NCBI GenBank assembly: GCA_964604715.1
Contig: CAZRZR010000001.1
Location: 10,197 to 34,196, forward strand
Origin: Candidatus Woesearchaeota archaeon
Lineage (GTDB): Archaea > Nanobdellota > Nanobdellia > Pacearchaeales > GW2011-AR1
DNA: 24,000 nucleotides
Direction of reading: 5' to 3'
The notes beneath the pieces are model-generated. The model ran no database searches and was not told where the DNA came from. It worked only from the letters and a program-made list of their open reading frames with translations. Shown in pieces: positions 2,423-23,965 of the stretch. The stretch's first letter is position 1. Every line of letters starts with the position of its first letter. The position numbers were made by a program, and so were the translations under genes.

Positions 2423-2443
2423 AATTTAACCTACTTTGTAGGA

Positions 2444-2451
2444 TTTAAATA
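2444..2451 (-). promoter_or_regulatory. TATA box of surface-protein gene A
   Basis: The minus strand reads TATTTAAA. Its upstream edge at 2451 is 29 nt from the ATG at 2422. The box sits directly after the protease A stop codon. Confidence 0.6.
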
Positions 2452-2458
2452 ATTACCG

Positions 2459-3748
2459 TTAACAAAGTTCAAGACCGCAATTTCCAGCAGTCGCCGAATT
2501 TACACTTGTTTTAGATAGCTTAGTAAGAAAAACATTTAATTTCCAGAATGTTCGTTCAAGATTAATCCGTTTAAGTTGTGAATTATCTTTTAAATCATCC
2601 CCATTCAGTGCCAGCAAAGTTTCAATCTGCTTGGGAGTCATAGATTTAGATTTTCCATCTAAAGCAATTTTCTGATTAGCAATAGCAAATGATCCAGCAA
2701 CCATCGGTGCAGCCATGCTGGTGCCACTCATCGCAATATAGCCTCCACCACGTTTCGTAGAAACGATTTCAGTGCCAGGAGCCACAAGTTTAACAAATGA
2801 ATTTACGTTAGAGTACGTAGCAAAACTATCGCTCTTATTACTTGCTGCAACAGGAATAGCGTTAGAAATGCACGAAGGCACCGAAATTCTATCAGTCTTG
2901 TAATTATTTCCTGTTGAAATAACAACAGAAATATTCTTTGCAGCAGCTGCATTAATAGCGTTTGCAATAGTAGGGAAGTTCACGTCACAAGCGCCAGTAA
3001 ACCATCCATTGGAGGCAATGCTCATCGAAATAACTGAAATATTATACCGTTCAGCAAGTTGAACAGCCTTATCAATAGAGCGCACAATAGGAACGGTGCT
3101 AGTAAATGTGCCACTAGAACCATTGAACATCTTTAAAGCAATCAAATTAACTCCAGGCGCAATACCCTTTATTCCTCCAGAAGCGCCTGCAATTCCAGCA
3201 ACGTGAGTACCATGACCATTCAAATCAGTCACACTAGTTGAGCCTTGACAATCAGCAAAATTATAACAATCAAACTCTACGCCTGCAATATTCTTTCCGA
3301 TCAAATCAGGATGACTAAAATCAATACCTGTATCAACAATAGCAATAGTCTGTCCAGTTCCAGTCAAATAAGCCCCTTTGTAATTCCAGTTCCAAACTGT
3401 GCTTGCCTTAGTAATACTGGCTGCATCAGTCATGCTAATGCTAAAATCAAGAGCAGGTTCTAATATAGCAACTTCGTCTTTATTAGCAAATTCATTAATC
3501 TGTAAGGCATTAAGTTTAACAACGATTGCCTCAGGATAAAACTTTTCTACAATATTGTCCTCTCCAACTTGAGACGCAATTTTATCGAATGCGTTAGCAT
3601 CGCTAACCCAAATAGTAACTTTAACAGACTCATCACTATCTAACCTCAATAAAGAAGGAGAAACTACTGCCTTTGAACTTACAAAGGCCAGGTTAAACAC
3701 GACCCCTATAGCGAGGCAAAATACCAATTTCATAACCTTATTTTTCAT
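2459..3748 (-). CDS. Subtilisin-like serine protease (peptidase S8), paralog A, with signal peptide and N-terminal propeptide-like region
   Basis: Catalytic triad motifs are present: IAIVDTGIDFSHPDL (Asp), NGHGTHVAGIAGA (His), MSGTSMAAPMVAG (Ser). The N-terminus is hydrophobic. The ORF-track start at 3763 is a TTG. The ATG at 3748 (MKNKVMKL...) aligns with paralog B's MKNKGLLL and lies 29 nt from the TATA box at 3770-3777. Confidence 0.9.
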   Translation of the reverse strand: MKNKVMKLVFCLAIGVVFNLAFVSSKAVVSPSLLRLDSDESVKVTIWVSDANAFDKIASQVGEDNIVEKFYPEAIVVKLNALQINEFANKDEVAILEPALDFSISMTDAASITKASTVWNWNYKGAYLTGTGQTIAIVDTGIDFSHPDLIGKNIAGVEFDCYNFADCQGSTSVTDLNGHGTHVAGIAGASGGIKGIAPGVNLIALKMFNGSSGTFTSTVPIVRSIDKAVQLAERYNISVISMSIASNGWFTGACDVNFPTIANAINAAAAKNISVVISTGNNYKTDRISVPSCISNAIPVAASNKSDSFATYSNVNSFVKLVAPGTEIVSTKRGGGYIAMSGTSMAAPMVAGSFAIANQKIALDGKSKSMTPKQIETLLALNGDDLKDNSQLKRINLERTFWKLNVFLTKLSKTSVNSATAGNCGLELC

Positions 3749-3769
3749 ATAATTTAGGGTCAAAACTAC

Positions 3770-3777
3770 TATATAAA
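3770..3777 (-). promoter_or_regulatory. TATA box of protease A
   Basis: The minus strand reads TTTATATA. Its edge at 3777 is 29 nt from the ATG at 3748. Confidence 0.65.
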
Positions 3778-3808
3778 CCTTTGTATATGTTACTACTTCT
3801 ATGTGACA

Positions 3809-6571
3809 TTAATGTGAAAAACCTTGTTTCATATAACTATTGAAACCATCAGTAGTAAATCTAGTATCCCAATTTTCCTTAGACAATCCTCTAACAGAAG
3901 TCATAAGATTTTCAATATTGTAACCCAATCCTAAAGATTGCGCGTAAGATTCAGGATTTCTTTCAGGATACATATACTGTATTTTCTCAATGACAGAATT
4001 ATCCCCAGTTAAAGAGTTCCATTGGGAAAGCGAATAAATTCCCCCCACCCCTCCAAGATAAAACTGGAATCCAGGTAAATCAGACCAATACTTATTTCCA
4101 GAGAAAACTCCAGGAAGCTGGCTATTAGTACCAAACCAAACGAGCAAAGCCTTTCCTCCAGGTTGCACATCGTTATCTTTGAAAATCAAAGGAGAAGCGG
4201 CTTGAGGTGCATTAAGAGCTACTGCAGGATCATGTAATTCATCTTCAAGATTACGATAAGTCCAATTATAGACGATATTATTATGGATATTAGTATTCGC
4301 AGCACTCCAAGGAATTACGAATGCCAAACTCGAGTCACCGTCAGTGGAATGAACAATTAAATTATGATCAATCTCCACATTCAAAGAATGAACTGGCCAT
4401 ATAGCAAAACCCTTAGGCTGATTGCCGACATTATAATTTCTACTATAAACAAAAGTATTATTGAATATATGTCCCGTAGATGCATCAATATTGTCATCAC
4501 TACCTACAGTTACACCAACATCATTTCTTATAAATACATTATTGTAAACATCGCAACCAGTCCTACATTGAACAGCCCCCCTTCCAGAATTTCTAAACCA
4601 GTTGTTTCTTATTATAATATTTGCCTCTGTTCCATGCTGACCATTATCCTGAGTAGAATAAACGTATTCCGACTGTCTATGTCCAGAATTTATCAAACTT
4701 GTTCGGATATCCATTACATTTCCGTCAACAAGTATCAAACCCTTAGTATTAGAAGTAAAGACTCCCGCCGCACCATTATTATCTTCATATGCCCTATTTC
4801 CATCTATGATAATATTTCTTCTAAAACTAATATCTGAAAAACTAACTTGGGGCGAAATAGAGATTCCGGCACCATAATTCTCAATCATATTGTCTTCAAA
4901 CAATATTCTATTTCCAGTGCTAGTCACATAATAAATTCCTCCAGGACCGCTATCATGACCATCCCACGTATCTGCCCAGAAATGCAAACCAACAATCGCT
5001 CTATCGTGTATATTAGAAGCAGCGGTATAAAAACCATTATTAGACCCTGTCTTAATCAAAGGTCTATTTCCAGTTCCATAAGAACCTATAACTTCAGGTT
5101 CTGAAGCCGAACGTCCGTTTGCACCATACAAACCATTCACTACAAAAGTATCTCCCTTCTTGAAAAGCACCCAGTCAGGATAACCATCTCGTATCTGAGC
5201 TAAAGCATCGACAACATTTGAATAAGCCTGTACACTTATAGATGGATGAGTTGGATCACTTCCAACTTCAGCCTTAGTATATGGTCTTGGATTAGCACTT
5301 CCACTAGAACTAACATAAATTATTCTGCTATCGGTAGATGGAGATAAAATAGTCCATCCAGAACTATCACAAGCAAGCCATTGTTCAGGACAGGCATTTC
5401 CTAGTTGCTGTGCACATGCACTTGGTTCTCCAGAACAAGTCCATCCTGCCTCAACAAAACAGCTTGATGAGCATCCGTCTCCATTATTCACATTAAAATC
5501 ATCGCAGGTTTCCCCTTCTTCAACAAAACCATTCCCACAAAATCCAGCAGTGCTTCCCCCAAATTCAAAATTGTCCTGCTTACTATCACATCCATTATCT
5601 TGAGGATAATCTGTAAGCCCGTTGCCATCATCATCAATACCATTCTGACATTGTGATTTAGGATTTGTCTCGTCATTATCACTAACATCAGAGCAACTAA
5701 AATCAGCCATATCTATCGCACCATCGTTATCATTATCTATCCCGTCATCACACTGCTTTGCAATTTTGTTATCTTTTGTACTACTAAAAATTCTAGAAAT
5801 AATACATTTACTAGGCTGCCCGGAACATCTCCATCCATCTTCAACCCTGCATATAGAAGAACATCCATCTCCATTATTCACGTTTGCATCATCGCAGGTC
5901 TCTCCAGTTTCCTTTATTCCATTTCCACAAACAGGAGGAATACAAGAAGAAAAATCAAAACGGCATTCATCAGATTGCCCAGGAGCAATGCAAGCAAGAT
6001 TACCAGAAGCAAAACCTAAGCTAGAACATGTTTGCCCATCCAAAGAAGTTCCATCGCATTGCTCTCCCGACTCTACAAGATTATTTCCACATACACTAGG
6101 GGGAGTCCAATCAAACCAAATCTTATCAATCTTACTAGGCAAGTTATTATCCGGCAATTTCACCCTATACTTAAAAGAACTGGCGGGCAAAGTGCATCCA
6201 GGAGCAGAAACAATGTAGACTCCATTTTGAACACTACACCAGGAAGCACCATTATTTGTAGAAACAGAAACCTGAACATCGCTGGTTCCAATCCAAGAAG
6301 CCCTTAAGTATTGTGAGCTAGAACCAATTGAAATAGACTTTGATGTAAATGTCCCGTCTAGCCCTCCAGTCCCAGCACCAGATCTCACATAATTCGTAGT
6401 TCCATCCCAAGCAACTTTGGCATAACTAGCAATGAAAGTATTTGAATTTATATTTACAGTATAATCATCAGAAAAACCAGGGGGAGATAATGAAATATTA
6501 GGAGAAAGAGACATAATATACGCAAAAACAAACAAAACAGCCAAAACAAGTAGCAAATCCCTCTTATTCAT
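3809..6571 (-). CDS. Large secreted or surface protein, paralog B (N-anchor or signal, conserved N-domain, Cys-rich DUF4215-type repeats, Asp-rich Ca-loop or MopE-like motifs, right-handed parallel beta-helix C-terminal half)
   Basis: This is the 923-aa ORF in the track. It carries CGNGIKETGETCDDANVNNGDGCSSICRVEDGWRCSGQPSKC and CGNGFVEEGETCDDFNVNNGDGCSSSCFVEAGWTCSGEPSAC repeats, plus CDDGIDNDNDGAIDMADFSC and CQNGIDDDGNGLTDYPQDNGC loops. The C-terminal half has periodic N-N-x-F/I/V turns (IIRNNWFRNS, VYNNVFIRND, HIFNNTFVYS, EIDHNLIVHS, NIHNNIVYNW) typical of pectate-lyase-fold beta-helices. The start is probably the ATG at 6571 (MNKRDLLL), which aligns with paralog A's M1 and is 29 nt from the TATA box. 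The ATG at 6580 is the alternative. Confidence 0.9.
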   Translation of the reverse strand: MNKRDLLLVLAVLFVFAYIMSLSPNISLSPPGFSDDYTVNINSNTFIASYAKVAWDGTTNYVRSGAGTGGLDGTFTSKSISIGSSSQYLRASWIGTSDVQVSVSTNNGASWCSVQNGVYIVSAPGCTLPASSFKYRVKLPDNNLPSKIDKIWFDWTPPSVCGNNLVESGEQCDGTSLDGQTCSSLGFASGNLACIAPGQSDECRFDFSSCIPPVCGNGIKETGETCDDANVNNGDGCSSICRVEDGWRCSGQPSKCIISRIFSSTKDNKIAKQCDDGIDNDNDGAIDMADFSCSDVSDNDETNPKSQCQNGIDDDGNGLTDYPQDNGCDSKQDNFEFGGSTAGFCGNGFVEEGETCDDFNVNNGDGCSSSCFVEAGWTCSGEPSACAQQLGNACPEQWLACDSSGWTILSPSTDSRIIYVSSSGSANPRPYTKAEVGSDPTHPSISVQAYSNVVDALAQIRDGYPDWVLFKKGDTFVVNGLYGANGRSASEPEVIGSYGTGNRPLIKTGSNNGFYTAASNIHDRAIVGLHFWADTWDGHDSGPGGIYYVTSTGNRILFEDNMIENYGAGISISPQVSFSDISFRRNIIIDGNRAYEDNNGAAGVFTSNTKGLILVDGNVMDIRTSLINSGHRQSEYVYSTQDNGQHGTEANIIIRNNWFRNSGRGAVQCRTGCDVYNNVFIRNDVGVTVGSDDNIDASTGHIFNNTFVYSRNYNVGNQPKGFAIWPVHSLNVEIDHNLIVHSTDGDSSLAFVIPWSAANTNIHNNIVYNWTYRNLEDELHDPAVALNAPQAASPLIFKDNDVQPGGKALLVWFGTNSQLPGVFSGNKYWSDLPGFQFYLGGVGGIYSLSQWNSLTGDNSVIEKIQYMYPERNPESYAQSLGLGYNIENLMTSVRGLSKENWDTRFTTDGFNSYMKQGFSH
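5414..5539 (-). repeat. DUF4215 / Myxococcus-type cysteine-rich repeat, copy 2 of paralog B (coding)
   Basis: CGNGFVEEGETCDDFNVNNGDGCSSSCFVEAGWTCSGEPSAC, matching the pattern CGNG-x3-GE-x-CDD-x-N-x3-GDGCS-x2-C. Confidence 0.6.
5804..5929 (-). repeat. DUF4215 / Myxococcus-type cysteine-rich repeat, copy 1 of paralog B (coding)
   Basis: CGNGIKETGETCDDANVNNGDGCSSICRVEDGWRCSGQPSKC. Confidence 0.6.
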
Positions 6572-6592
6572 AAAAAACATTAATTTCTGTAG

Positions 6593-6600
6593 TTTAAATA
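6593..6600 (-). promoter_or_regulatory. TATA box of surface-protein gene B
   Basis: The minus strand reads TATTTAAA. Its edge at 6600 is 29 nt from the ATG at 6571. The surrounding sequence is conserved with 2441-2456. Confidence 0.6.
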
Positions 6601-6606
6601 ATTATA

Positions 6607-7911
6607 TTAACACAAGCCAGAATCACAATTCTCTGTAATCGCTAAGTCTGCATTCGCACGAGACAACTTTTTAAATAAAACATCTAATTTCATAAATACT
6701 TTCTGAAGATTAATTCTCTTAAAACTAGCATCTTTAAGAACATCTCCGTTTTCAGCAAGCAATAATTCAATTTGTTTAGGAGCCATAGACATAGGTTTTC
6801 CATCTAAAGCAAGCTTCTGATTAATCATCGCAATTGAAGCACTAACCATTGGAGCAGCCATGGATGTACCGCTCATGATAGTATATCCTCCACCTTTCTT
6901 AGTAGAGTTTATACTTGTTCCAGGAGCTACCAATTTTACAAAATGGTTTCTATTAGAATATGTTGCAAGAGTATCATCCTTATTACTTGCTGCAACAGGA
7001 ATAGCAGAACTGATACATGACGGCACGGAAATCCGATCGGTTTTGTAATTATTACCTGTCGAAATTACTACCGATATATTCTTCGCAGCTGCAGCATTGA
7101 TAGCAGTCGCAAGGGTAGGAAAGTTAGCATCACATGCTCCAGTAAACCATCCATTTGAAGCAATACTCATAGAAATAACTGAAATATTATATTGTTCTGC
7201 AAGTGCCACCGCTTTGTTAATAGAGCGCTCAATAGGCACAACGCTTGAAAACGTGCTACTCGATCCATTGAACATCTTGAGAGCAATTAAGTTAACCCCT
7301 GGAGCAATGCCACTAATCCCGCCAGAGGCTCCAGCAATTCCTGCAACATGTGTTCCATGTCCGTTCAAGTCAGTCACACTAGGCGATCCAGCACAATTAG
7401 CAAAATTGTAACAATCAAATCCAACTCCTGCAATATTCTTAGCCGCTAGATCGGGATGAGTAAAATCAATACCAGTGTCAATTATCGCAATAGTCTGACC
7501 TACTCCAGTCAAGTTCTGACCATTGTAAACAATAGGCCATACATCTACGGCATGCGTTATCTTCACAGCATCATACATAGAAACACTAAAAGTTGGTGCA
7601 GTTTCAAGACCAGCAACGTTCGCATGGGTGCTTAAGCGATCCACGTCTACACTCGAAAGAGAAGCGACAACTGCTTCTGGATAGAAGCGATCCTTGACAT
7701 TATCTTGCCCTATAGAAGCGACAACTGCGTCAAAAGCTTCCTGAGAAGGGACATTACCTTGATAATCAACACGAACAGTTACTAGCACACTGTCAGTATC
7801 TGCTTTAAGCCCCTTAAGAGCGGGAGATACATATGTGGCAGAAGCAAAACTTACAAGCAACAGACAAGCTACAAAACCTATAATCCCAAGCAAAAGACCT
7901 TTATTTTTCAT
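6607..7911 (-). CDS. Subtilisin-like serine protease (peptidase S8), paralog B
   Basis: Catalytic motifs are IAIIDTGIDFTHPDL, NGHGTHVAGIAGA and MSGTSMAAPMVSA. By eye the catalytic core is roughly 85% identical to paralog A in protein. A 70-nt stretch I aligned by hand (around 2878-2947 against 7022-7091) had 57/70 matches. Confidence 0.92.
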   Translation of the reverse strand: MKNKGLLLGIIGFVACLLLVSFASATYVSPALKGLKADTDSVLVTVRVDYQGNVPSQEAFDAVVASIGQDNVKDRFYPEAVVASLSSVDVDRLSTHANVAGLETAPTFSVSMYDAVKITHAVDVWPIVYNGQNLTGVGQTIAIIDTGIDFTHPDLAAKNIAGVGFDCYNFANCAGSPSVTDLNGHGTHVAGIAGASGGISGIAPGVNLIALKMFNGSSSTFSSVVPIERSINKAVALAEQYNISVISMSIASNGWFTGACDANFPTLATAINAAAAKNISVVISTGNNYKTDRISVPSCISSAIPVAASNKDDTLATYSNRNHFVKLVAPGTSINSTKKGGGYTIMSGTSMAAPMVSASIAMINQKLALDGKPMSMAPKQIELLLAENGDVLKDASFKRINLQKVFMKLDVLFKKLSRANADLAITENCDSGLC

Positions 7912-9697: not shown

Positions 9698-11140
9698 CTA
9701 ATAACTTCTTCCTACATATACAACTTCGTTAGCCTTCTTACCACAAACTATGCATTCACCATGTATTTTTTCCTTCTCTAACTTTGTTCCTCTGACATCG
9801 GCACCAGAAGCCTCGTTTAGCTTCTCAGCGCATTTTGCACCATCTTTGCCAACAGAACAAAACCCACAGCGCACGACATTGCCTGATTCAATAAGTTTAA
9901 CTAACTCTTTCATATGTTTTGCATCCTTAATACGGCCTTCAAAGAGCTTGTCTGCTTGATTAGTCAAGTTAAAATCATACTCTCGCGCAATATTTTCTAT
10001 AGTCTTAAGAAAATCTTTTTCAGAGACCATATCTTTCTTATTTAGGTCGCGTCTAAAAATAACGACCTTTTTTTCAGCAAGATCTTTATCACCTACATCA
10101 ACACGTATGGGAACGCCCTTCATTTCCCAATGATTGAACTTTTCACCAGGGCTCTTGTCACTCGTATCAATTTCCCATGTAATCTCATTAGGCAGCCTCT
10201 TAGCTAATTCTTTAACTTTTTTTTCAGCTGCTTCACTTATAGGCACAAATACCACGTGAAGCGGTGCAATGCTCCAAGGCATTCGCAAGCCCTTATCATC
10301 GCCATGAACAGTAATAACGCTCGCAAGTATTCTTGAAATGGCAGGACCATAACACGTCGAGTAAGGCGTCTGTTCATTGCCTTCTGCATCTCTAAACTTC
10401 ACGTCAAAAGCCTTCAAGAAATCTTGTGAAATCATATGGGTGCTAGGCTGCTGAATGAATTTTCCATCAGGATTTAACACATCGGCCGCAAACGTTCTGC
10501 TCGCTCCAGGAAACTTATCCCATGCAGGACGTTCAAAGAAAATGAAAGGGAGCCCTAAAGTATTGTGTAAAATCTCTTCAGTAGTTTGCATGTCTTCTTC
10601 AACTTGCTCAAACGCCTTCTCTTCACTAGGGAATAAGCAATGAGTCTCTATCCAATGAAATTCACGTGAGCGTAAAAACGGTCGTGTCGCTTTAGTCTCA
10701 TATCGGAATACCTGTGCACGCTGATACGTTTTGTAAGGAAGCTGTTTATAACTACGTATCCACAGAGCAAACATCTGATAAAATGCAGTTTCAGACGTAG
10801 GTCTAAGTGCTAATTTTTCATCGAATTTAGAATCTCCGCCTTCAGTCACCCAAAAAACCTCAGGCGTAAAACCTTTCAAATGTTCAGATTCCTTCTTTAA
10901 ATTCTGCTCAGGAATGACTGTTGGGAACCAATGGGGCTTGTGCCCTTTTCTACGCAATGTGGTTTCCATATAATCATATATCTTTTCCATAGCAATAACT
11001 GACCACGGCTGAAACACCAAGAAACCCTTGACATTATATCTCAGGTCTGCCAACTCAGCCTTCTGCACAATCTCTGTAAACCATTCGGAAAAGTTTTCCT
11101 TTTTGCTTACTGAAAGCCCTTTATCGCCTTTAGATGCCAT
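9698..11140 (-). CDS. proS: Prolyl-tRNA synthetase, archaeal/eukaryotic type
   Basis: Class II motifs are present: VFRYETKATRPFLRSREFHWIETH and CYGPAISRILASVI. The C-terminal Cys-containing domain ends in ...VGRSY with a terminal Tyr, typical of archaeal-type ProRS. The ORF-track start at 11143 is a GTG. The ATG at 11140 is 29 nt from the A/T box at 11162-11169. Confidence 0.92.
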   Translation of the reverse strand: MASKGDKGLSVSKKENFSEWFTEIVQKAELADLRYNVKGFLVFQPWSVIAMEKIYDYMETTLRRKGHKPHWFPTVIPEQNLKKESEHLKGFTPEVFWVTEGGDSKFDEKLALRPTSETAFYQMFALWIRSYKQLPYKTYQRAQVFRYETKATRPFLRSREFHWIETHCLFPSEEKAFEQVEEDMQTTEEILHNTLGLPFIFFERPAWDKFPGASRTFAADVLNPDGKFIQQPSTHMISQDFLKAFDVKFRDAEGNEQTPYSTCYGPAISRILASVITVHGDDKGLRMPWSIAPLHVVFVPISEAAEKKVKELAKRLPNEITWEIDTSDKSPGEKFNHWEMKGVPIRVDVGDKDLAEKKVVIFRRDLNKKDMVSEKDFLKTIENIAREYDFNLTNQADKLFEGRIKDAKHMKELVKLIESGNVVRCGFCSVGKDGAKCAEKLNEASGADVRGTKLEKEKIHGECIVCGKKANEVVYVGRSY

Positions 11141-11161
11141 CACGTTTAGAAGAAAAACACT

Positions 11162-12360: not shown

Positions 12361-13305
12361 TTACAAATCCTGCAAATCATCAACTTCATCAGCAGTCAAA
12401 GCTCGATCCCATAATCTCAATTCATCAAATGAGCCTTGGAAGTGAGCCATTTCTGCGAAGTTTCCAAAACCAGAACCAATTCTGATAGGCAAGTGAGATT
12501 CGAATACACCATCAATCTTGTTAATATTTCCTGTAGTGTCTCCAACACGGTTTCCATCAATATAGAGGTTCTGCTTCCCTGGTTCAAATGTGCCAACAAA
12601 TAAGTGCCATTGACCATCTTGATAAAATTCATTGCATTGTCTTGTATAAGCTCGATGATCATTGTTTCCACTAGTGCCGTCCTCAGAAACATATAAGTCA
12701 ATACCAGAGCATTTACCGCCTTTAGCAATATCTGCCTGCCAGCTCACTCCGTCTTTTCCATCCCAAGTACCAATAAAGAATTGTCCTGCTTCGTTCTTAG
12801 TTCCTTTGAACCAGAAAGCAACGCTAAATGCCTTGTCGAATGATAATGAAGATGTAGCTGGAATAGTTACTAGGTCGTTAACCCCGTCAAAAAGCAAACC
12901 ATTATTGTGTCGTCCCGAGACTCCGCTTTGTGGACACTCAGAGCCAGAGCATCGTGCTTCTCTGTTGTTTTCGTCATTTTCAAAACGTGTAGAGTTTGCG
13001 CCTTCATCAAATGAGAAGTAAGCAACAATTCCATCCTCAACACTACTTGTGCGATCATTATTGCTTGAGTGTGATGTTCCACGTTGTGTGTTAAACTGCT
13101 GACTGTAGAGGGATTCATAGTACAAAGGATCTTCAGCTTGACCCTGTACAATATAAACTGGTTCTTGAGGAGCAACCTTGACAACTTTCTCAGCCGTATA
13201 ATTAAAGTTATAGAAAACCATCAAAGACAACACTAGGCCTACAAGAATGCATCCGAGTAATACAAAAAATATAGCAAGTTCATTAGAACCTTTTCGTCCG
13301 TTCAT
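12361..13305 (-). CDS. LamG / concanavalin-A-like lectin domain protein (Laminin_G_3 type) with N-terminal TM or pilin-like signal
   Basis: FDGVNDLVTIPATSSLSFDKAFSVAFWFK ... LYIDGNRVG ... FQGSFDELRLWDRALTADEV is the characteristic Laminin_G_3 pattern. The N-terminus is MNGRKGSNELAIFFVLLGCILVGLVLSLMVF. Confidence 0.8.
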   Translation of the reverse strand: MNGRKGSNELAIFFVLLGCILVGLVLSLMVFYNFNYTAEKVVKVAPQEPVYIVQGQAEDPLYYESLYSQQFNTQRGTSHSSNNDRTSSVEDGIVAYFSFDEGANSTRFENDENNREARCSGSECPQSGVSGRHNNGLLFDGVNDLVTIPATSSLSFDKAFSVAFWFKGTKNEAGQFFIGTWDGKDGVSWQADIAKGGKCSGIDLYVSEDGTSGNNDHRAYTRQCNEFYQDGQWHLFVGTFEPGKQNLYIDGNRVGDTTGNINKIDGVFESHLPIRIGSGFGNFAEMAHFQGSFDELRLWDRALTADEVDDLQDL

Positions 13306-15471: not shown

Positions 15472-16494
15472 TTACTTACCGAAGTTTCTCTTGCGTACTG
15501 CAAACTCTTCCAGAGCTAGACGCAAATCATCTGGGCTAAAATCAGGAAAATATTTATCCGAAAAGTAAAGCTCGGCATAGGCTGATTGAAACGGCATGAA
15601 ACCGCTAGTACGTTTCTCTCCAGACGTTCTAATAATTAAATCAACATCAGGCAAATCACTCGTATCCAGATAGCGCGCAAGATCTTTTTCAGTCACTTGT
15701 TTAGTTCCAGAGCCAATAACTCTATTCACAGCCCTAACCAGCTCGTCTCTCCCACCATAATCGAAACAAATTTGCAAATAATAATTATCAAAATTTTCTG
15801 TAGCCTTCTCTAAAGAAACAATTTCTTTCACAATATCTTTAGGAAGCCTATCAAGTCTTCCAAGATGTCTAAATCTAGTTCCAGTCCTTACAAGTTCCTT
15901 GCGCAATTGAGAAATTCCTTTTCTAAAAAGTGAAAAAAGCTCGTTCAATTCTCGTCTATCTCGGCCCCAGTTTTCTGTTGAAAAGGCCCAGAAAGTAGCG
16001 CATTTTACTCCACGCTTTTGGAGCTCACGAAAAAGAGAGACAAGCTTATCATAGGAAGCTCCTGAACGATGACCATACCACGGTTTAAACCCCTGTGCCG
16101 TTGCCCAACGCCTATTTCCATCTGGAATTATTGCAACATGACGAGGAATCTGTGCACGCCCTTCCAAAAGATTCTTTCCGAGATTAATAAAACTCTTACT
16201 CTGATCTTTTAGAAAACTATCATTTGTCACAATATCAAAAGAACTATACTGCTTGCTAGGTTTCCTCCAGCTGTACGAGAATTCTGATATCTTTGATAAT
16301 AATGAACCTTGCTGTAGCTTCACCAAAAACAAATCGAGATTTTTACGCGTGCCTTGAGCAACTACCGAAACATCACCAACAGGAGTATTGCGCACACTTC
16401 CTGTAAGTCCCAGTTTTTCGGCCTCTCTTTTGATGAATCTTCTTAACCCTACGCCCTGCACCCTACCGTATATATCCGCATTAAGTTCAATCAT
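15472..16494 (-). CDS. uppS: Fusion protein: N-terminal acylphosphatase-like domain plus cis-prenyltransferase (undecaprenyl/polyprenyl diphosphate synthase, UppS family)
   Basis: Residues 8-48 match both acylphosphatase signatures: IYGRVQGVGLRRF and GSVRNTPVGDVSVVAQG. From about residue 116 the UppS motifs appear: PRHVAIIPDGNRRWA, FSTENW and IIRTSGEKRTSGFMPFQSAYAELYFSDKYFPDF. Confidence 0.85.
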   Translation of the reverse strand: MIELNADIYGRVQGVGLRRFIKREAEKLGLTGSVRNTPVGDVSVVAQGTRKNLDLFLVKLQQGSLLSKISEFSYSWRKPSKQYSSFDIVTNDSFLKDQSKSFINLGKNLLEGRAQIPRHVAIIPDGNRRWATAQGFKPWYGHRSGASYDKLVSLFRELQKRGVKCATFWAFSTENWGRDRRELNELFSLFRKGISQLRKELVRTGTRFRHLGRLDRLPKDIVKEIVSLEKATENFDNYYLQICFDYGGRDELVRAVNRVIGSGTKQVTEKDLARYLDTSDLPDVDLIIRTSGEKRTSGFMPFQSAYAELYFSDKYFPDFSPDDLRLALEEFAVRKRNFGK

Positions 16495-19051: not shown

Positions 19052-20206
19052 ATGCCCTATTGTAAAATCTGTAATGAATGGAATTGTGACGAACACGAGT
19101 TCTTCATTGGCAAGACACAATGGAAAAAAGAATTTACGGGCTCGTCTCCACCGGAAATCTTTGTAGGACGTTGGAATTATCCAAATGTCTATACGGGCGT
19201 GCTAGCACCTGAACAAGTCGGAGATACGGAAGCACACACGTCCTCTGAAATATGGCACTCGCGAAAGATGCAAATTCCAGACATCATGCGTCTAAGAAAC
19301 TCATTAATTTACGGCAGAACGCAGAGCAACATACATAAAACGCATCAATTCTCACACGTCTTTAAAGAAATTGCAATGACACATAAACCTGTAGCTACAT
19401 ACTTCCAATTAAAAAAACCAATTCAATCGCACAACGAAAATGAGCCTAACGTGCCTTTGATCAGTCGCGCTGCTCCAATAGAACGAGTCACATTAGAACA
19501 AAATGCCCCTGTGAAGCCTAAGATTGACTATCTAGTAAATGACATAGACGTCAAATCATCAACTGCTATGCAAGAGCTTTACAAAGCTAACACTTCAGTT
19601 TCTTCAATCACAAAATTGCTCTCAGCAGGACTCTTAGGAAAGAAATCTGCGCGGAAACTCGTTCCAACAAAATGGTCAATAACCGCAGTAGACAGCAACC
19701 TTTCTAAAGAAAAACTAAAAAAGATCAAGGGATTTCAAGAATTAAATGACATACGCGTGTTTCATGCCCAGTATTTAGGAAATCATTACGAGTTCCTCTT
19801 ACTCCCCGGAACGTTTTCTTTTGAAGTCATTGAAATTTCTATAGCAAGCGGAGGCGTTTGGCAAGACTATGAATCTCAATTTGATCGTAAGACCTATGCA
19901 GACTCAGTAACTGGAGCATATTATGCAAACCGCCTTGCACTCGCCGAGTATTTGGAAACAATTCAACGTCAGGCCCAGTGTCTAGTAATGCGAGAAGTTC
20001 GCCCAGAATATTACGCGCCTTGTGGAGTCGGAATCCTAAGAGAGACAAGCAGAGAAGCCTTCAAGTCGCATGAAACCTTCGGTACAAAAGAAGAAGCTTT
20101 CCAAGTCATACAATCCAGAATAAAACTGCCCATCTCAGCATTCTTATCAAAATCTAAACTACTGAAAGTTCACGGCAAGCAGAAAAAGTTACACGAGTTT
20201 TTTTAA
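19052..20206 (+). CDS. Nre-family archaeal DNA-repair-associated protein (Nre_N/Nre_C, NreA-like) with a C-terminal PIP box
   Basis: The N-terminus has a Cys cluster (CKICNEWNC) followed by SSPPEIFVGRWNYPNVYTGVLAP. As I recall, this matches the conserved Nre N-domain motif (SPP-x-VFVG-x-x-GYP-x-V). The extreme C-terminus QKKLHEFF fits the canonical PIP box Q-x-x-L-x-x-F-F. Confidence 0.65.
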   Translation: MPYCKICNEWNCDEHEFFIGKTQWKKEFTGSSPPEIFVGRWNYPNVYTGVLAPEQVGDTEAHTSSEIWHSRKMQIPDIMRLRNSLIYGRTQSNIHKTHQFSHVFKEIAMTHKPVATYFQLKKPIQSHNENEPNVPLISRAAPIERVTLEQNAPVKPKIDYLVNDIDVKSSTAMQELYKANTSVSSITKLLSAGLLGKKSARKLVPTKWSITAVDSNLSKEKLKKIKGFQELNDIRVFHAQYLGNHYEFLLLPGTFSFEVIEISIASGGVWQDYESQFDRKTYADSVTGAYYANRLALAEYLETIQRQAQCLVMREVRPEYYAPCGVGILRETSREAFKSHETFGTKEEAFQVIQSRIKLPISAFLSKSKLLKVHGKQKKLHEFF

Positions 20207-20824
20207 TTCTTCCAATTCTTCTAGACCTAATTGAGTTTTACCAAGCTCATTCACAAGCCACAGCCCGCTTTCACGTATTTTCTCTTTCGGAGAAAAATTA
20301 CCGAGCCATTCTGCAGAAGCCTTACACGATTCACATGCAGAAATAGAAGAAATAATTTTAGATTCGAATTCAAGCCTCTTGGACGCGTCATCGATTTCAA
20401 AAACTACGCAGCTAATGTTATTTTGAATATGTGTGCTCACTTCTTTTTCAATAGCTCGTTGTTTGTGCATATCGACTGTGTGCAGCAAATCTCTTTTCGC
20501 TTTTACCGTAGTGAGATCATATTCCCAAATCTTCAAAAAAGGATCATTTTCTCTATTCAGCAAAGCGCGCCCAATATTCTTCCTAAATATACTTCTATCC
20601 TTGTTCTCATCTATGAAATGTTGCTTCAAGCGAGAACGTAACTGTCCCTCTCCAGTATGCGTACCCACGCGCACAATTCGATCTCCTCCGTGAGCTTTCT
20701 CATTATCCTCGAACAAAACATAAATGCCGTTCTTAGGCACGTTACGTTCATTGAAGGGGAATCTCAGTCTAGGCAGACTATTGAATAACACGTGTAGCTG
20801 TTCACACACATTAATATGGGACAT
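20189..20824 (-). CDS. GIY-YIG nuclease-domain protein
   Basis: NGIYVLFE (GIY), RIVRVGTH (YIG-like) and LRSRLKQH...RSIFRKNIGRALL (conserved Arg/His region). Its 3' end overlaps the convergent Nre gene by 18 nt. Confidence 0.65.
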   Translation of the reverse strand: MSHINVCEQLHVLFNSLPRLRFPFNERNVPKNGIYVLFEDNEKAHGGDRIVRVGTHTGEGQLRSRLKQHFIDENKDRSIFRKNIGRALLNRENDPFLKIWEYDLTTVKAKRDLLHTVDMHKQRAIEKEVSTHIQNNISCVVFEIDDASKRLEFESKIISSISACESCKASAEWLGNFSPKEKIRESGLWLVNELGKTQLGLEELEELKKLV

Positions 20825-20840
20825 ACAAAATCAAAAAAGA
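20825..20840 (-). terminator. Oligo-T tract after tbp
   Basis: The minus strand reads TCTTTTTTGATTTTGT, downstream of the tbp stop (20857) and upstream of the ATG at 20824. Confidence 0.3.
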
Positions 20841-20856
20841 CCGCATATAAGTAGTT

Positions 20857-21420
20857 TTACTTCTTATCCGCAAGTCGCTTCAAAACAGCTTTAATGTTCT
20901 TATTGAGTTGTTCCATCGCATCATCTAGTTGCTGCTTGTTCTTTGTTCCAGTACATACAAGCTTTCCATTCGAGAACAATAAGAACGTTGTTGTAGGCTC
21001 ATCCAATTTATATACCAATCCTGGAAACTGTTCAGGTTCATATTCAGTATTTTCAAGTTCCAAAGCTAAAATGTTCAAGTTCAAATCCACGTTAATAGTG
21101 CCGGAGGCAACAATATTCTGAACGGTTATCTTAGGTTTGTCTGTAATCTTAACGCCTATCTTCCCTAGTTGTTTAATAACTTGTTCAATAACTTCCTTCA
21201 CTTGTGCAACGCTCTTTGTTCCTGTGCATACAAGATTTCCAGAAGAAAATACAAGTACGGCAGACTTAGGCTTCTTTACACGCAAGACAAGACCTGGAAA
21301 TTGCTCTGGATTGTATTCAGTATTGGTATAAGATTTAGCAAGCTTAGTCAAAGAGACAGGCTTCCCCAGCGAACTGGTAGCCACAATGTTTTGAATCGTT
21401 AAATTAGAATCCTTTACCAT
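20857..21420 (-). CDS. tbp: TATA-box binding protein
   Basis: It has two direct repeats: IQNIVATSSL...EQFPGLVLRVKKPKSAVLVFSSGNLVCTGTKS and VQNIVASGTI...EQFPGLVYKLDEPTTTFLLFSNGKLVCTGTKN. Confidence 0.95.
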   Translation of the reverse strand: MVKDSNLTIQNIVATSSLGKPVSLTKLAKSYTNTEYNPEQFPGLVLRVKKPKSAVLVFSSGNLVCTGTKSVAQVKEVIEQVIKQLGKIGVKITDKPKITVQNIVASGTINVDLNLNILALELENTEYEPEQFPGLVYKLDEPTTTFLLFSNGKLVCTGTKNKQQLDDAMEQLNKNIKAVLKRLADKK

Positions 21421-21449
21421 CGGCAGATGACCTTTTTAAAGGAAATAGC

Positions 21450-21457
21450 TTTATAAA
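21450..21457 (-). promoter_or_regulatory. TATA box of the tbp gene, inside a 14-bp perfect palindrome
   Basis: agctttataaagct (21447-21460) equals its own reverse complement. The box edge is 37 nt from the ATG at 21420, which implies a leader of about 8 nt, unlike most genes here. Confidence 0.5.
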
Positions 21458-21507
21458 GCTTCCTAGTAAGCGTTGAAGCTATAGATAACTAGATTTTAAA
21501 GAAGAGT

Positions 21508-22203
21508 CTAACTTCTTAATTCTACAAAAACATGTTTTTTTATGTCTAATTTTTTATGAAATTCCGGAAACAGTTCCTTATTTTGAATCTTTTCGACCAT
21601 TTGATTTAGAAGTCCATCGTAAGGATAAGTGTAACAATCATAAAAGGTGCCATAATAATCGAACCCGTGCAATAACTCAGGCAACTCTTCTAAAATATAG
21701 GTTCCAAGTTTTATTTTTTGTTCCTCGGTAAAATTGTTATCTGCAAGATGCAAATTAACTATTTTCAATATTTCCATCCTAAAAATAACGTTTTCTTCAT
21801 ATTCTTTATAGAAAATTGATAAAAACTCCTTATTAAACGACGACTTTTTTACTTCATCCCATCTTATTATATCAATTCGTCTTTGTTCTTCTAAAGGAAG
21901 TTCTTTTATTATTTGTTCGAGAACGATTACCATTTCATCTCCTTTCTTCAAAGCCTTCCTTCTAGCTTTCTCTGAAGAGTCGCCATTTCTCACTTCATAA
22001 TTAATAGAATGCAACGTGTCTCCAATAAGCAACCCTGCTCTATTCTTGGTATATTGTAAGCACCATAATAGATTTTCTTTCAAATGACTTTTAGTAAACC
22101 ATTTATTTCCCAAACTAATGCCTACATAAATATTAAATTTTTTATCTTGGACTTCCTTGAGAGAAGCTCCTCTAACCATCAACGCAATTGCTTTGCTTTT
22201 CAT
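21508..22203 (-). CDS. tRNA-dependent cyclodipeptide synthase (CDPS) family protein
   Basis: I aligned it by eye to AlbC and YvmC as I remember them. NIYVGISLGNKWFTK matches ALIGISAGNSYFS and VLVGISPFNSRFS (catalytic Ser in G-I-S). SSEKARRKALKKG matches RGKAERKVRKE. GTYILEELPELL matches NYVLAEAPLF and EYVIAELPFF (Tyr178/Glu182 equivalents). The 231-aa size fits. A possible alternative start is the ATG at 22179. Confidence 0.75.
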   Translation of the reverse strand: MKSKAIALMVRGASLKEVQDKKFNIYVGISLGNKWFTKSHLKENLLWCLQYTKNRAGLLIGDTLHSINYEVRNGDSSEKARRKALKKGDEMVIVLEQIIKELPLEEQRRIDIIRWDEVKKSSFNKEFLSIFYKEYEENVIFRMEILKIVNLHLADNNFTEEQKIKLGTYILEELPELLHGFDYYGTFYDCYTYPYDGLLNQMVEKIQNKELFPEFHKKLDIKKHVFVELRS

Positions 22204-22255
22204 TTATAGGTTTAATAGTCTAACTTAAGCACTTTTAATTTCTTTCTTTATAGTA

Positions 22256-23965
22256 CTAAAGACTATGCGCCCCAGTATTAGTCGTTCTCTGCTTCGTTAA
22301 CTCTTTCTTTATGTCTGCGAGTGAGGCAATATCTCCAGTTCCTCGTTCAGGCCGATAGTGTGAAATTCTAGGGAAACGCAATGCAAATCCTGACGAATAC
22401 GTCGGACTCGGTTGTATGTTTTGATAAGTCACAGAAACTACGACTTTAGGTTTGACATAAACAATATTACCTTCACGCTTAGTAACTATCTTCTGTAAAA
22501 TTTCGTCCAACTCCTTATAGGTCGTGCCCTCTTCACTGGTCTTTTCTTTCAACCCAGATGAGACACGACCAACTTCAACAAAATCATCTCCATCTCTGCA
22601 AGCTAAAATAAAACTAGTTAGTCCGCCAGCGCGCTTTCCTGTCCCGTATTCCGCACCTACAATAACCAAATCAAGATCTTGCTTAGCCGGTTTTAATTTA
22701 GCCATATATCCGACATATCTTCCAGCACGATAAGGCGCATCAAGTTTCTTGATCATAACGCCTTCTTCACCAATCTTCAAAGCTTCATGATAAAATTTCT
22801 CAGCCACATCAACCCTATCAGTAACTATCTGCTTCGCGAGTCGTATAACCCACGCTTTCTGTTTAACGATTTTCTCTATTAACTCTCTACGATCGCTAAA
22901 AGGCATATCCAATGTCGACTTACCGTCATAGTAAAGAATATCAAAAACATTAAGTTCAACAGGCAACTTAGCAGCCAATTCACTTATGTCATGCTTTCTC
23001 TTTATGCGTTGACTTATAGATTCGAACGGCAAGTACTTTTCAGTTTTATGATCAAATCCCACCGCCTCGGAATCAAGGATAAAACTTTCACCTTTAATAT
23101 GAGATTTAACAACACTAGTCACATCAGGAAACTGTTTAGTCACATCTTCCAGTCGTCTTGTAAATAATTTGATTTCCTTGCCATCGTAACTTATGACCAT
23201 TCTAAATCCGTCATACTTATGTTCAAACACACAAGGCTTTCCGCAAATTCTGAATCCATCCTCAAGATCCTCGGCCTTAGTAGCCAACATAACTTGAACT
23301 GGCCTTCCTGGCCGTAAATGAGCGCGATCAAAAGTCTTAGCCCCCTTAAACGCCATTCCTAAAATTTCCGCAAAATCATTAACGAGCGCATACGTTTGCT
23401 CAACTTTCTCAAGTATTGCCTTATCTCCCGAAAAGAAAGCAGATACAACCGCTTCCACTAAGATCGCATCAGCAACACCAACACGAAGATCTCCCATGAC
23501 AGTTCTGATCAAATAACGAGCTTCTTCAGGCCTAGCAGAGATAAGTAATTCTGAAATAATCGCAAGCTTCTTATCAACCGTTCCTTTTCCTTCTATAGAT
23601 GCGAGAGCTGAAAGCGAAGCAAACACGTGTTCAGCAGTCAAATCCCTTGCATATAACGCAGCCTGTTTCTTGTGAGCAAGCATATGAGCTGCGACGTCTC
23701 CAAGATCGCCCTTAGAAGAAAATTCCTTAGTTACCTTAGCACTATCAGCAGCAGTCGCCTTTGCAATTGATTTTATAACCAGTTGTGTGGACATTCCAAT
23801 TTCTCGTATATCGTAATCTGGAAAGACACGTCCACGAAGCAAATACACGAGTTCTTCCTGCCCCTTTAAATGCGGTAAAAATTCTGCAAGAATTTTAGTC
23901 TTCTCAAGTCTCTTAGTCGTACCGGAAAGCTTCTCATAAAGACTAACAAATGAACTATATTTCAT
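22256..23965 (-). CDS. lig: ATP-dependent DNA ligase
   Basis: EHKYDGFRM (KxDG adenylation motif), ILDSEAVGF, EGVMIKKL, DLVIVGAEYGTGKRAG and ALRFPRISHYRPE (motif VI). Confidence 0.95.
   Translation of the reverse strand: MKYSSFVSLYEKLSGTTKRLEKTKILAEFLPHLKGQEELVYLLRGRVFPDYDIREIGMSTQLVIKSIAKATAADSAKVTKEFSSKGDLGDVAAHMLAHKKQAALYARDLTAEHVFASLSALASIEGKGTVDKKLAIISELLISARPEEARYLIRTVMGDLRVGVADAILVEAVVSAFFSGDKAILEKVEQTYALVNDFAEILGMAFKGAKTFDRAHLRPGRPVQVMLATKAEDLEDGFRICGKPCVFEHKYDGFRMVISYDGKEIKLFTRRLEDVTKQFPDVTSVVKSHIKGESFILDSEAVGFDHKTEKYLPFESISQRIKRKHDISELAAKLPVELNVFDILYYDGKSTLDMPFSDRRELIEKIVKQKAWVIRLAKQIVTDRVDVAEKFYHEALKIGEEGVMIKKLDAPYRAGRYVGYMAKLKPAKQDLDLVIVGAEYGTGKRAGGLTSFILACRDGDDFVEVGRVSSGLKEKTSEEGTTYKELDEILQKIVTKREGNIVYVKPKVVVSVTYQNIQPSPTYSSGFALRFPRISHYRPERGTGDIASLADIKKELTKQRTTNTGAHSL

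Follow-up and report, generated by a model that had tools for sequence, protein, structure and literature searches.

Does the 231-aa open reading frame (ORF) that stands between two core genes of a Candidatus Woesearchaeota archaeon encode a cyclodipeptide synthase (CDPS), an enzyme that makes a small cyclic dipeptide from two charged tRNAs, and if so, how did it come to be there and what might it make? We analyzed a stretch of 24,000 nucleotides from contig CAZRZR010000001.1 (assembly GCA_964604715.1, positions 10,197 to 34,196), which we call the window. An original prediction, made from the sequence alone, had named the ORF a CDPS gene. We consider it highly probable that the ORF encodes a functional CDPS of the XYP type that was recently gained, as a 769-bp single-gene cassette, by a DPANN archaeon.

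Assignment of the protein to the CDPS family

21508-22203, minus strand: CDPS gene, XYP subfamily, 231 aa, assigned from the ORF, profile hidden Markov models (HMMs), the predicted fold and conserved residues.

The ORF begins with ATG and ends with TAG, in the ORF listing as in the raw sequence. Its product scored above threshold with the Pfam profile PF16715 (35.5 bits, with a gathering score of 27), a search that the original prediction had proposed as a check, and with the NCBIfam profile TIGR04539 (61.5 bits against a cutoff of 45). The top phmmer match in the Protein Data Bank (PDB) was ParcuCDPS, the enzyme of Parcubacteria bacterium RAAC4_OD1_1 (ETB63777.1, PDB 7QB8, CDPS 90 of Gondry et al. 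2018), with an E-value of 8.6e-32 over residues 9-230, and other CDPSs came next. Judged by these scores, the family resemblance is far beyond chance.

We built an AlphaFold2 model of the protein on a 40-sequence family alignment (pLDDT 96.9, pTM 0.92) and compared it with the PDB using Foldseek. All 50 of the 50 hits listed were CDPSs. The best were 7QB8 and 7QAX (TM 0.81, E 3e-15), and AlbC, YvmC, Rv2275, Nbra-CDPS, Fdum-CDPS and Rgry-CDPS were among the hits, each with a probability of 1.00. The modelled protein is a single Rossmann-like domain related to the catalytic domains of class-Ic aminoacyl-tRNA synthetases (aaRSs), and it can be superposed on the solved CDPSs. With HMM scores beyond the curated cutoffs, the PDB match, a predicted fold that matches only solved CDPSs, and the catalytic residues described below, the product of 21508-22203 is a bona fide CDPS, as had been predicted.

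Catalytic residues and subfamily

Residues were mapped through the alignment to ParcuCDPS and through a 58-sequence family alignment. The four motifs quoted in the original prediction are all present in the protein: YVGISLGNKWF at residues 26-36, KARRKALKKG at 79-88, TYILEELP at 168-175 and CYTYP at 190-194. The key residues, with the positions of their codons, are as follows.

22114-22116, minus strand: S30, equivalent to AlbC S37 and ParcuCDPS S26, within G-I-S-L-G-N.
22105-22107, minus strand: N33, equivalent to AlbC position 40 (S30+3).
22018-22020, minus strand: D62, equivalent to ParcuCDPS D58.
21697-21699, minus strand: Y169, equivalent to AlbC Y178.
21685-21687, minus strand: E173, equivalent to AlbC E182.
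21622-21627, minus strand: Y193-P194, equivalent to AlbC 202/203 (E173 +20/+21 counted without gaps, in agreement with the alignments).

In ParcuCDPS, D58 is essential for the enzyme (PMC7613923). S30 showed no variation in the 40-sequence alignment and was found in every sampled member that covers its position. Across the family sampled, Y169 and E173 are invariant and Y193 nearly so. Of the 55 full-length members examined, 53, with the window protein among them, have the full set of S/N/D/Y/E/Y/P; the exceptions are one member with Asn at the Asp position (locus L051) and one that lacks the Tyr-Pro pair (L013). Six basic residues (K79, R81, R82, K83, K86 and K87) lie on a predicted helix, alpha4, that spans residues 77-100, and may correspond to the basic alpha4 patch with which CDPSs bind the tRNA.

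Members of the XYP subfamily carry Tyr-Pro at AlbC positions 202/203, with position 40 free, whereas those of the NYH subfamily have His at 203. The window protein has Y193-P194 and N33 at these positions and thus falls in the XYP subfamily, with Asn at position 40, an assignment that had been made by eye and that the ParcuCDPS and family alignments confirm. Pro194 stands where an NYH enzyme would have His, and the Asn is the sole NYH mark that the protein shares. The same N...YP pattern occurs in ParcuCDPS, an accepted XYP member (PMC7613923).

The proposed mechanism follows by analogy from the ping-pong mechanism established for AlbC and ParcuCDPS. The aminoacyl group of the first aminoacyl-tRNA would enter pocket P1 and move to Ser30, which Asp62 would polarize, while Tyr169 and Glu173 would hold the amino group. 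The aminoacyl group of the second aminoacyl-tRNA, lying in pocket P2, would then be added to give a dipeptidyl-enzyme, and Tyr193 would be expected to assist the intramolecular cyclization with which a 2,5-diketopiperazine is released.

Insertion of the gene between ligase and TBP

22256-23965, minus strand: ATP-dependent DNA ligase (Pfam DNA_ligase_A_N, _M and _C); conserved upstream flank, outside the cassette.
20857-21420, minus strand: TATA-binding protein (TBP; Pfam TBP, E 4e-58); conserved downstream flank, outside the cassette.
21449-21458, minus strand: TATA box of the TBP gene (CTTTATAAAG), conserved in L063, L064 and L065.
21486-22254: insert of 769 bp, in place of which L063 has 8 bp (CGGAAATT).

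Apart from the ligase and TBP, the window encodes Nre, GatB/E and an archaeal-type prolyl-tRNA synthetase (ProRS). The ligase protein, which is of archaeal type, is 100% identical to a protein from a Joint Genome Institute (JGI) metagenome, 80% identical to proteins from metagenome-assembled genomes labelled Nanoarchaeota archaeon and about 63% identical to proteins labelled Candidatus Pacearchaeota archaeon; the latter two groups are the closest named ligases. The original prediction had considered the contig archaeal; this archaeal gene set and the ligase identities mark the host as a DPANN archaeon of the Pacearchaeota/Woesearchaeota kind (Nanoarchaeota in GTDB).

We compared the window and the junction sequences with three related loci (L063, L064 and L065) by blastn. 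The JGI metagenome contig 3300045379 (L063) encodes an identical ligase protein, and its ligase gene is directly followed by that of TBP, with no CDPS. Its DNA matches the window at 98.9% identity over the ligase and at 97.0% from the TBP promoter through Nre, and the flanks of the insert match it base for base right up to the junctions. The left junction lies 1 nt past the ligase stop codon; the right one falls upstream of TBP, 65 nt before its ATG and 27 nt before its TATA box. Ligase and TBP are likewise adjacent, with gaps of 50-61 nt, in L064, where the ligase is 85% identical, and in L065 and L066 (80%, Nanoarchaeota GCA_964363815.1). Since the CDPS is missing from L063 to L066, the ancestral state was without it and the window lineage gained it. 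The original prediction had the gene sitting between core genes. The ligase and TBP do flank it as described, but it is a recent insertion and not an old resident: the CDPS is a strain-variable gain in the form of a 769-bp single-gene cassette.

One could suspect instead that a CDPS from a bacterium of the Candidate Phyla Radiation (CPR) had been misjoined to an archaeal contig during assembly or binning, given that close relatives occur in Patescibacteria and that ParcuCDPS is the best PDB match. We regard this artefact as effectively refuted. The Logan assembly of run SRR16481182 (L001), which is independent, repeats both junctions and is 100% identical over 19894-22901 (3008 bp), which excludes a chimera. 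Moreover, the closest homologues of the CDPS group in an archaeal subclade whose contigs bear the labels Pacearchaeota, Woesearchaeota or Nanoarchaeota, and the flanks continue the L063 sequence without a break.

The CDPS ORF is the sole gene of the insert, which also contains a TATA-like box and a weak hairpin with a T-run.

22246-22254, minus strand: TATA-like box (ACTATAAAG), putative cassette promoter, standing at the left insert edge and 43-51 nt upstream of the CDPS ATG.
21494-21515, minus strand: weak hairpin (GAAGTTAGACTCTTC) followed by TTTAAAA and overlapping the stop codon, possible terminator (RNA fold of -4.0 kcal/mol, 6-bp stem).
22217-22226, minus strand: 5' copy of the 10-mer AAGTTAGACT, 14-23 nt upstream of the CDPS ATG.
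21505-21514, minus strand: 3' copy of the 10-mer AAGTTAGACT, overlapping the last codon and the stop codon.

By eye, the TATA-like box resembles the conserved box of the TBP gene. The two copies of the 10-mer are the only exact ones in the whole window and both lie within the insert; a post hoc test found a shared word of at least 10 nt between the two flanks in 110 of 20,000 shuffles. We considered the 10-mer as a target-site duplication and dropped it, because its copies are set 28 and 19 nt in from the edges of the insert, off the junctions. At the junctions themselves, no direct repeat was found.

The GC content of the CDPS gene (0.309) is the lowest among the 22 genes of the window (0.36-0.41 for the others, mean 0.393; z = -6.2). 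Its GC content at third codon positions is ordinary (z = -0.6) and L, K, E, I and N abound in the protein, so the low GC stems from amino-acid composition and not from codon usage. We therefore did not retain low GC as proof of foreign origin; the strain comparison shows the insertion instead.

The same GC value can be read another way, as the mark of a transferred passenger that is unexpressed or inactive with archaeal tRNAs and on its way to loss. The strain-variable presence of the gene and its lack of partner genes would suit such a passenger. Yet the ORF is intact with every catalytic residue conserved, the structural model is very confident, the third codon positions show no foreign codon usage, and a TATA-like box comes with the cassette. 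Members of the archaeal subclade also differ widely from one another, which implies long-term maintenance in DPANN archaea. We thus judge a non-functional passenger to be quite unlikely and favor a working enzyme.

The homologues have a different neighborhood in nearly every distinct genome sampled, some of them beside an integrase or transposase, and this fits a mobile single-gene unit. In two close relatives a pair of CDPS and SET-domain genes stands beside mobile-element genes, namely a tyrosine integrase, small ORFs and a primase/AAA_25 helicase-like gene in L002 (these neighbors at 189-5875) and a DDE transposase in L006 (at 4012-5547), which fits mobility of the cassette. Carriage by viruses was considered and set aside: IMG/VR, scanned with the family alignment, yielded no relatives, and there was no PHROGs hit. 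Membership in a defense system was also rejected, with no PADLOC hit for either the CDPS or the SET protein.

Substrate pockets and likely product

The products of ParcuCDPS are cyclo(His-Pro) and cyclo(His-Glu), in E. coli as well as in vitro (PMC7613923, PMC5816076). Table 2 of Gondry et al. 2018 gives its pocket motifs as GAYAWELY for P1 and FEWKYTR for P2 (PMC5816076). Column mapping recovered both motifs exactly from the 7QB8 sequence and is therefore valid. In the window protein, the corresponding P1 residues read YGLGWELY (Y26, G28, L59, G61, W115, E176, L177 and Y191), and those of P2 are I148, L151, H152, (D153), Y195, G197 and L198. YGLGWELY is absent from the motifs of characterized CDPSs in the same table, and a near-identical motif occurs in relatives on Pacearchaeota and Woesearchaeota contigs. 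The predicted P2 is unlike that of any characterized enzyme.

Sutherland et al. reported that Y55, E174 and Y189 of ParcuCDPS select histidine and contact its imidazole, and that mutation of Y55 strongly reduces the use of His (PMC7613923). Compared with the His-accepting GAYAWELY, P1 of the window protein retains the equivalents of E174 and Y189 (E176 and Y191), has leucine (L59) in place of Y55, and has a tyrosine at position 1 (Y26). Positions 1 and 3 of P1 covary throughout the family without exception: Tyr at position 3 goes with G, A or S at position 1 (22 of 22), and Y, F, W or L at position 1 goes with L, V, I or W at position 3 (35 of 35). This suggests that the two side chains share one space, and Tyr26 may replace Tyr55 of ParcuCDPS. 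In a neighbor-joining tree, the archaeal clade with the P1 motif YG[LV]AWELY, to which the window protein belongs, is sister to the CPR clade with GGYAWE.Y, to which ParcuCDPS belongs. Other clades have hydrophobic P1 motifs (FGLAWILH, FGLAWTLI and FGLPWMLL).

Because P1 keeps the two-Tyr-plus-Glu composition of ParcuCDPS, our tentative guess, which we would put somewhat below even odds, is a cyclodipeptide that contains His or another polar residue, with a polar first (P1) substrate that is possibly His. The predicted product is probably an unmodified cyclodipeptide, since there is no tailoring gene nearby. The window, which extends 21.5 kb to one side of the CDPS, contains no cyclodipeptide oxidase, P450 or small-molecule methyltransferase, and nothing relevant was seen in the 8 kb past the window end, as read from the syntenic L063. 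The original prediction had likewise seen no tailoring enzyme near the gene. With an insert of one gene, the locus has no adjacent tailoring enzyme of the kind that would make it a CDPS biosynthetic cluster.

Several points weigh against our interpretation of the enzyme and its product. P1 differs from that of ParcuCDPS at four of eight positions, including the Y55 equivalent, and the possible relocation of the tyrosine is deduced from covariation. P2 agrees with FEWKYTR, which accepts Pro or Glu, at one of seven positions and so does not share that motif. The tree was midpoint-rooted with no outgroup. The basic stretch K79-K87 lies in the N-terminal half of predicted alpha4, whereas the residues that matter in AlbC (R98 and R99) are C-terminal. 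Finally, the promoter and terminator were assigned by eye, with functions deduced from appearance.

Partner genes in the wider family

Although the window has no SET domain in a six-frame search with the SET HMM, a SET-domain gene of about 150 aa directly follows the CDPS, on the same strand and at -20 to +5 nt, at 7 of 57 loci. These loci are both archaeal and bacterial and are spread across different P1 clades; weaker SET-like neighbors occur at three further loci.

CDPS-SET loci, offsets overall -33 to +13 nt: L002 (6001-7153), L006 (6001-7156), L019, L026, L027, L035, L044, L071, L072 and L075.

The SET partners carry the motifs NHSCxPN and DY and a post-SET CxCx4C. Fused forms also occur. 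SET forms the C-terminus of five CDPS proteins (P0047, P0051, P0295, P0302 and P0427), and in three others of 435-440 aa (P0353, P0358 and P0379) a class-I S-adenosylmethionine (SAM) methyltransferase takes the position of SET. One protein has an N-terminal phosphoribosyltransferase fused to the CDPS (P0333, 390 aa), and two long members of the clade (P0391, 716 aa; P0407, 624 aa) have extra regions that match no Pfam family.

Viewed from the SET side, a CDPS is present at three of the six close SET homologues with enough upstream DNA and at none of the distant ones. We therefore rejected a dedicated SET partner. The two genes do pair, but facultatively, and the window has the form with a CDPS alone. 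SET domains are known from protein lysine methyltransferases. Our literature search found no link between SET domains and CDPSs, and we know of no SET-domain enzyme described in a small-molecule pathway. As a speculation that we think improbable in its full extent, the window gene may belong to a pool of mobile minimal cassettes that DPANN archaea and CPR bacteria share, with a CDPS alone or joined to a SET or class-I methyltransferase; these episymbionts would direct the products, polar cyclodipeptides that possibly contain His and are sometimes methylated, at hosts or competitors, and in the two-gene cassettes SET would act in a small-molecule pathway. The idea in the original prediction that a cyclodipeptide of this archaeon might serve in signaling or antagonism is likewise a speculation.

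Some relatives lie near translation genes. An archaeal D-aminoacyl-tRNA deacylase gene (PF04414) adjoins a Pacearchaeota CDPS in L004 (6704-7537) and lies within about 4 kb in L002 (10752-11612) and L003, with L017 also listed. Genes for aaRSs or GatB occur near the CDPS at several loci, and the ProRS gene of the window is at 9698-11143. The cases are too few to tell from chance in translation-rich small genomes. We also considered linkage to ProRS, given that ParcuCDPS uses Pro-tRNA, and dropped it as not distinguishable from chance: within the flanks retrieved it was seen at three loci only, two of them close relatives of each other, and the gene is 10 kb off in the window.

These neighbors bear on the idea that the CDPS fold carries out another reaction here, such as aminoacylation of another acceptor, synthesis of linear dipeptides or deacylation of aminoacyl-tRNAs, and so acts on translation. 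Proximity to the deacylase, aaRS and GatB genes would fit that idea, as would a reduced genome that is poor in secondary metabolism. Against this, all residues for the full cycle are conserved, including the cyclization residue Tyr193, and the sister-clade enzyme ParcuCDPS yields true cyclodipeptides. Links to translation genes were also seen at few loci (2-4 of 57), and genes of this kind account for much of these small genomes in any case. A different reaction thus seems to us slightly less likely even than a non-functional passenger, and cyclodipeptide synthesis remains the reading that we prefer.

Distribution of the family

A word-indexed search returned 47 homologues, every one of them carrying or matching PF16715. 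An exhaustive search returned 313 representatives at E ≤ 1e-3, of which 45 were at E ≤ 1e-30. Relatives were placed at 53 loci in GTDB species genomes labelled Pacearchaeota, Woesearchaeota and Nanoarchaeota and in many Patescibacteria/CPR groups; a few labels at these loci, such as Gammaproteobacteria, stem from co-assembly bins. As far as these sequences tell, the clade is common to DPANN archaea and CPR bacteria. Members of the archaeal subclade are 44-68% identical to each other.

The original prediction had described CDPSs as overwhelmingly bacterial. A 2022 review traces them mainly to three bacterial phyla, plus one archaeon. Still, an archaeal member of the same clade has been on record since 2018, and automated annotation already names homologues: MCK4552604.1, for example, is called 'tRNA-dependent cyclodipeptide synthase [Candidatus Pacearchaeota archaeon]' by NCBI. 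Gondry et al. 2018 recorded AQS34941 ('uncultured archaeon') as the first metagenomic archaeal XYP CDPS (PMC5816076), and AQS34941.1 is among our 47 homologues (P0032). We found no literature that deals as such with the CDPSs of DPANN, Woesearchaeota or CPR genomes. The window protein extends the known family and belongs to a known but experimentally untouched archaeal branch of it.

With a confident model, a distinct P1 motif and a crystallized sister enzyme, the protein is a clean test case. Should it make a diketopiperazine of the His type, the known His-accepting CDPSs, two so far, would gain a further biocatalyst. The two strains of this uncultivated DPANN archaeon differ in whether they have the gene, a polymorphism that is datable and offers a tractable case of recent accessory-gene gain in a reduced genome. 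What takes the locus beyond the routine is the strain-level insertion, a P1 motif that stands beside that of a His-accepting sister, and the methyltransferase partners found elsewhere in the clade.

Other genes of the window

Beside the TBP gene, at 20189-20824 on the minus strand, lies a gene for a 211-aa GIY-YIG protein that matches the PADLOC candidate defense protein PDC-M57B over its full length (E 2.8e-94). Both the window and L063 have the gene, and L064 and L065 lack it. As this gene is also variable, the neighborhood of TBP looks like a hotspot for accessory genes.

An acylphosphatase fused to a cis-prenyltransferase of the UPP synthase family (340 aa; 15472-16494, minus strand) is kept in L064, L065 and L066. 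Probable surface or secreted proteins are encoded at 2459-7911 on the minus strand, where two S8 subtilases of 434 aa each surround a 923-aa protein with a DUF4215 repeat, and a Laminin_G_3/ConA-like protein at 12361-13305 (minus strand) belongs to the same set. An episymbiont could use such proteins as interaction factors at its cell surface.

Comparison with known CDPSs

We compared the window enzyme with three CDPSs. The mechanistic reference is AlbC of Streptomyces noursei (PDB 3OQV/4Q24), from the albonoursin cluster. The window enzyme is predicted to share its Rossmann-like, class-Ic aaRS-like fold and its catalytic Ser, Tyr, Glu and Tyr and would, by analogy, share its ping-pong mechanism. 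AlbC differs in being an NYH enzyme, with His203 where the window protein has Pro194, and the two are 13-16% identical in sequence. It has hydrophobic pockets, makes cyclo(Phe-Leu) and shares a gene cluster with the AlbA/AlbB oxidase, unlike the solitary gene of the window.

AQS34941, an uncharacterized archaeal protein of the same DPANN/CPR family, is closer (42% identity, E 3e-41). It has the same catalytic set, and its gene too stands alone without tailoring genes. It belongs to another subclade with a hydrophobic P1 (FGLVWILH), and a different first substrate is therefore expected. Its gene sits between a glycosylase gene and a restriction-modification gene, unlike the window locus.

ParcuCDPS is the best solved relative (TM 0.81, with 28% identity in the Foldseek structural alignment), and its host is likewise ultra-small with a reduced genome, although it is a CPR bacterium and not an archaeon. 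Both enzymes are of the XYP type with Asn at position 40 and the catalytic S/D/Y/E/Y-P, and both read W-E-L-Y at P1 positions 5-8. They part at P1 positions 1-4, with GAYA in ParcuCDPS and YGLG in the window protein, and in P2, with FEWKYTR in the former and ILH(D)YGL in the latter.

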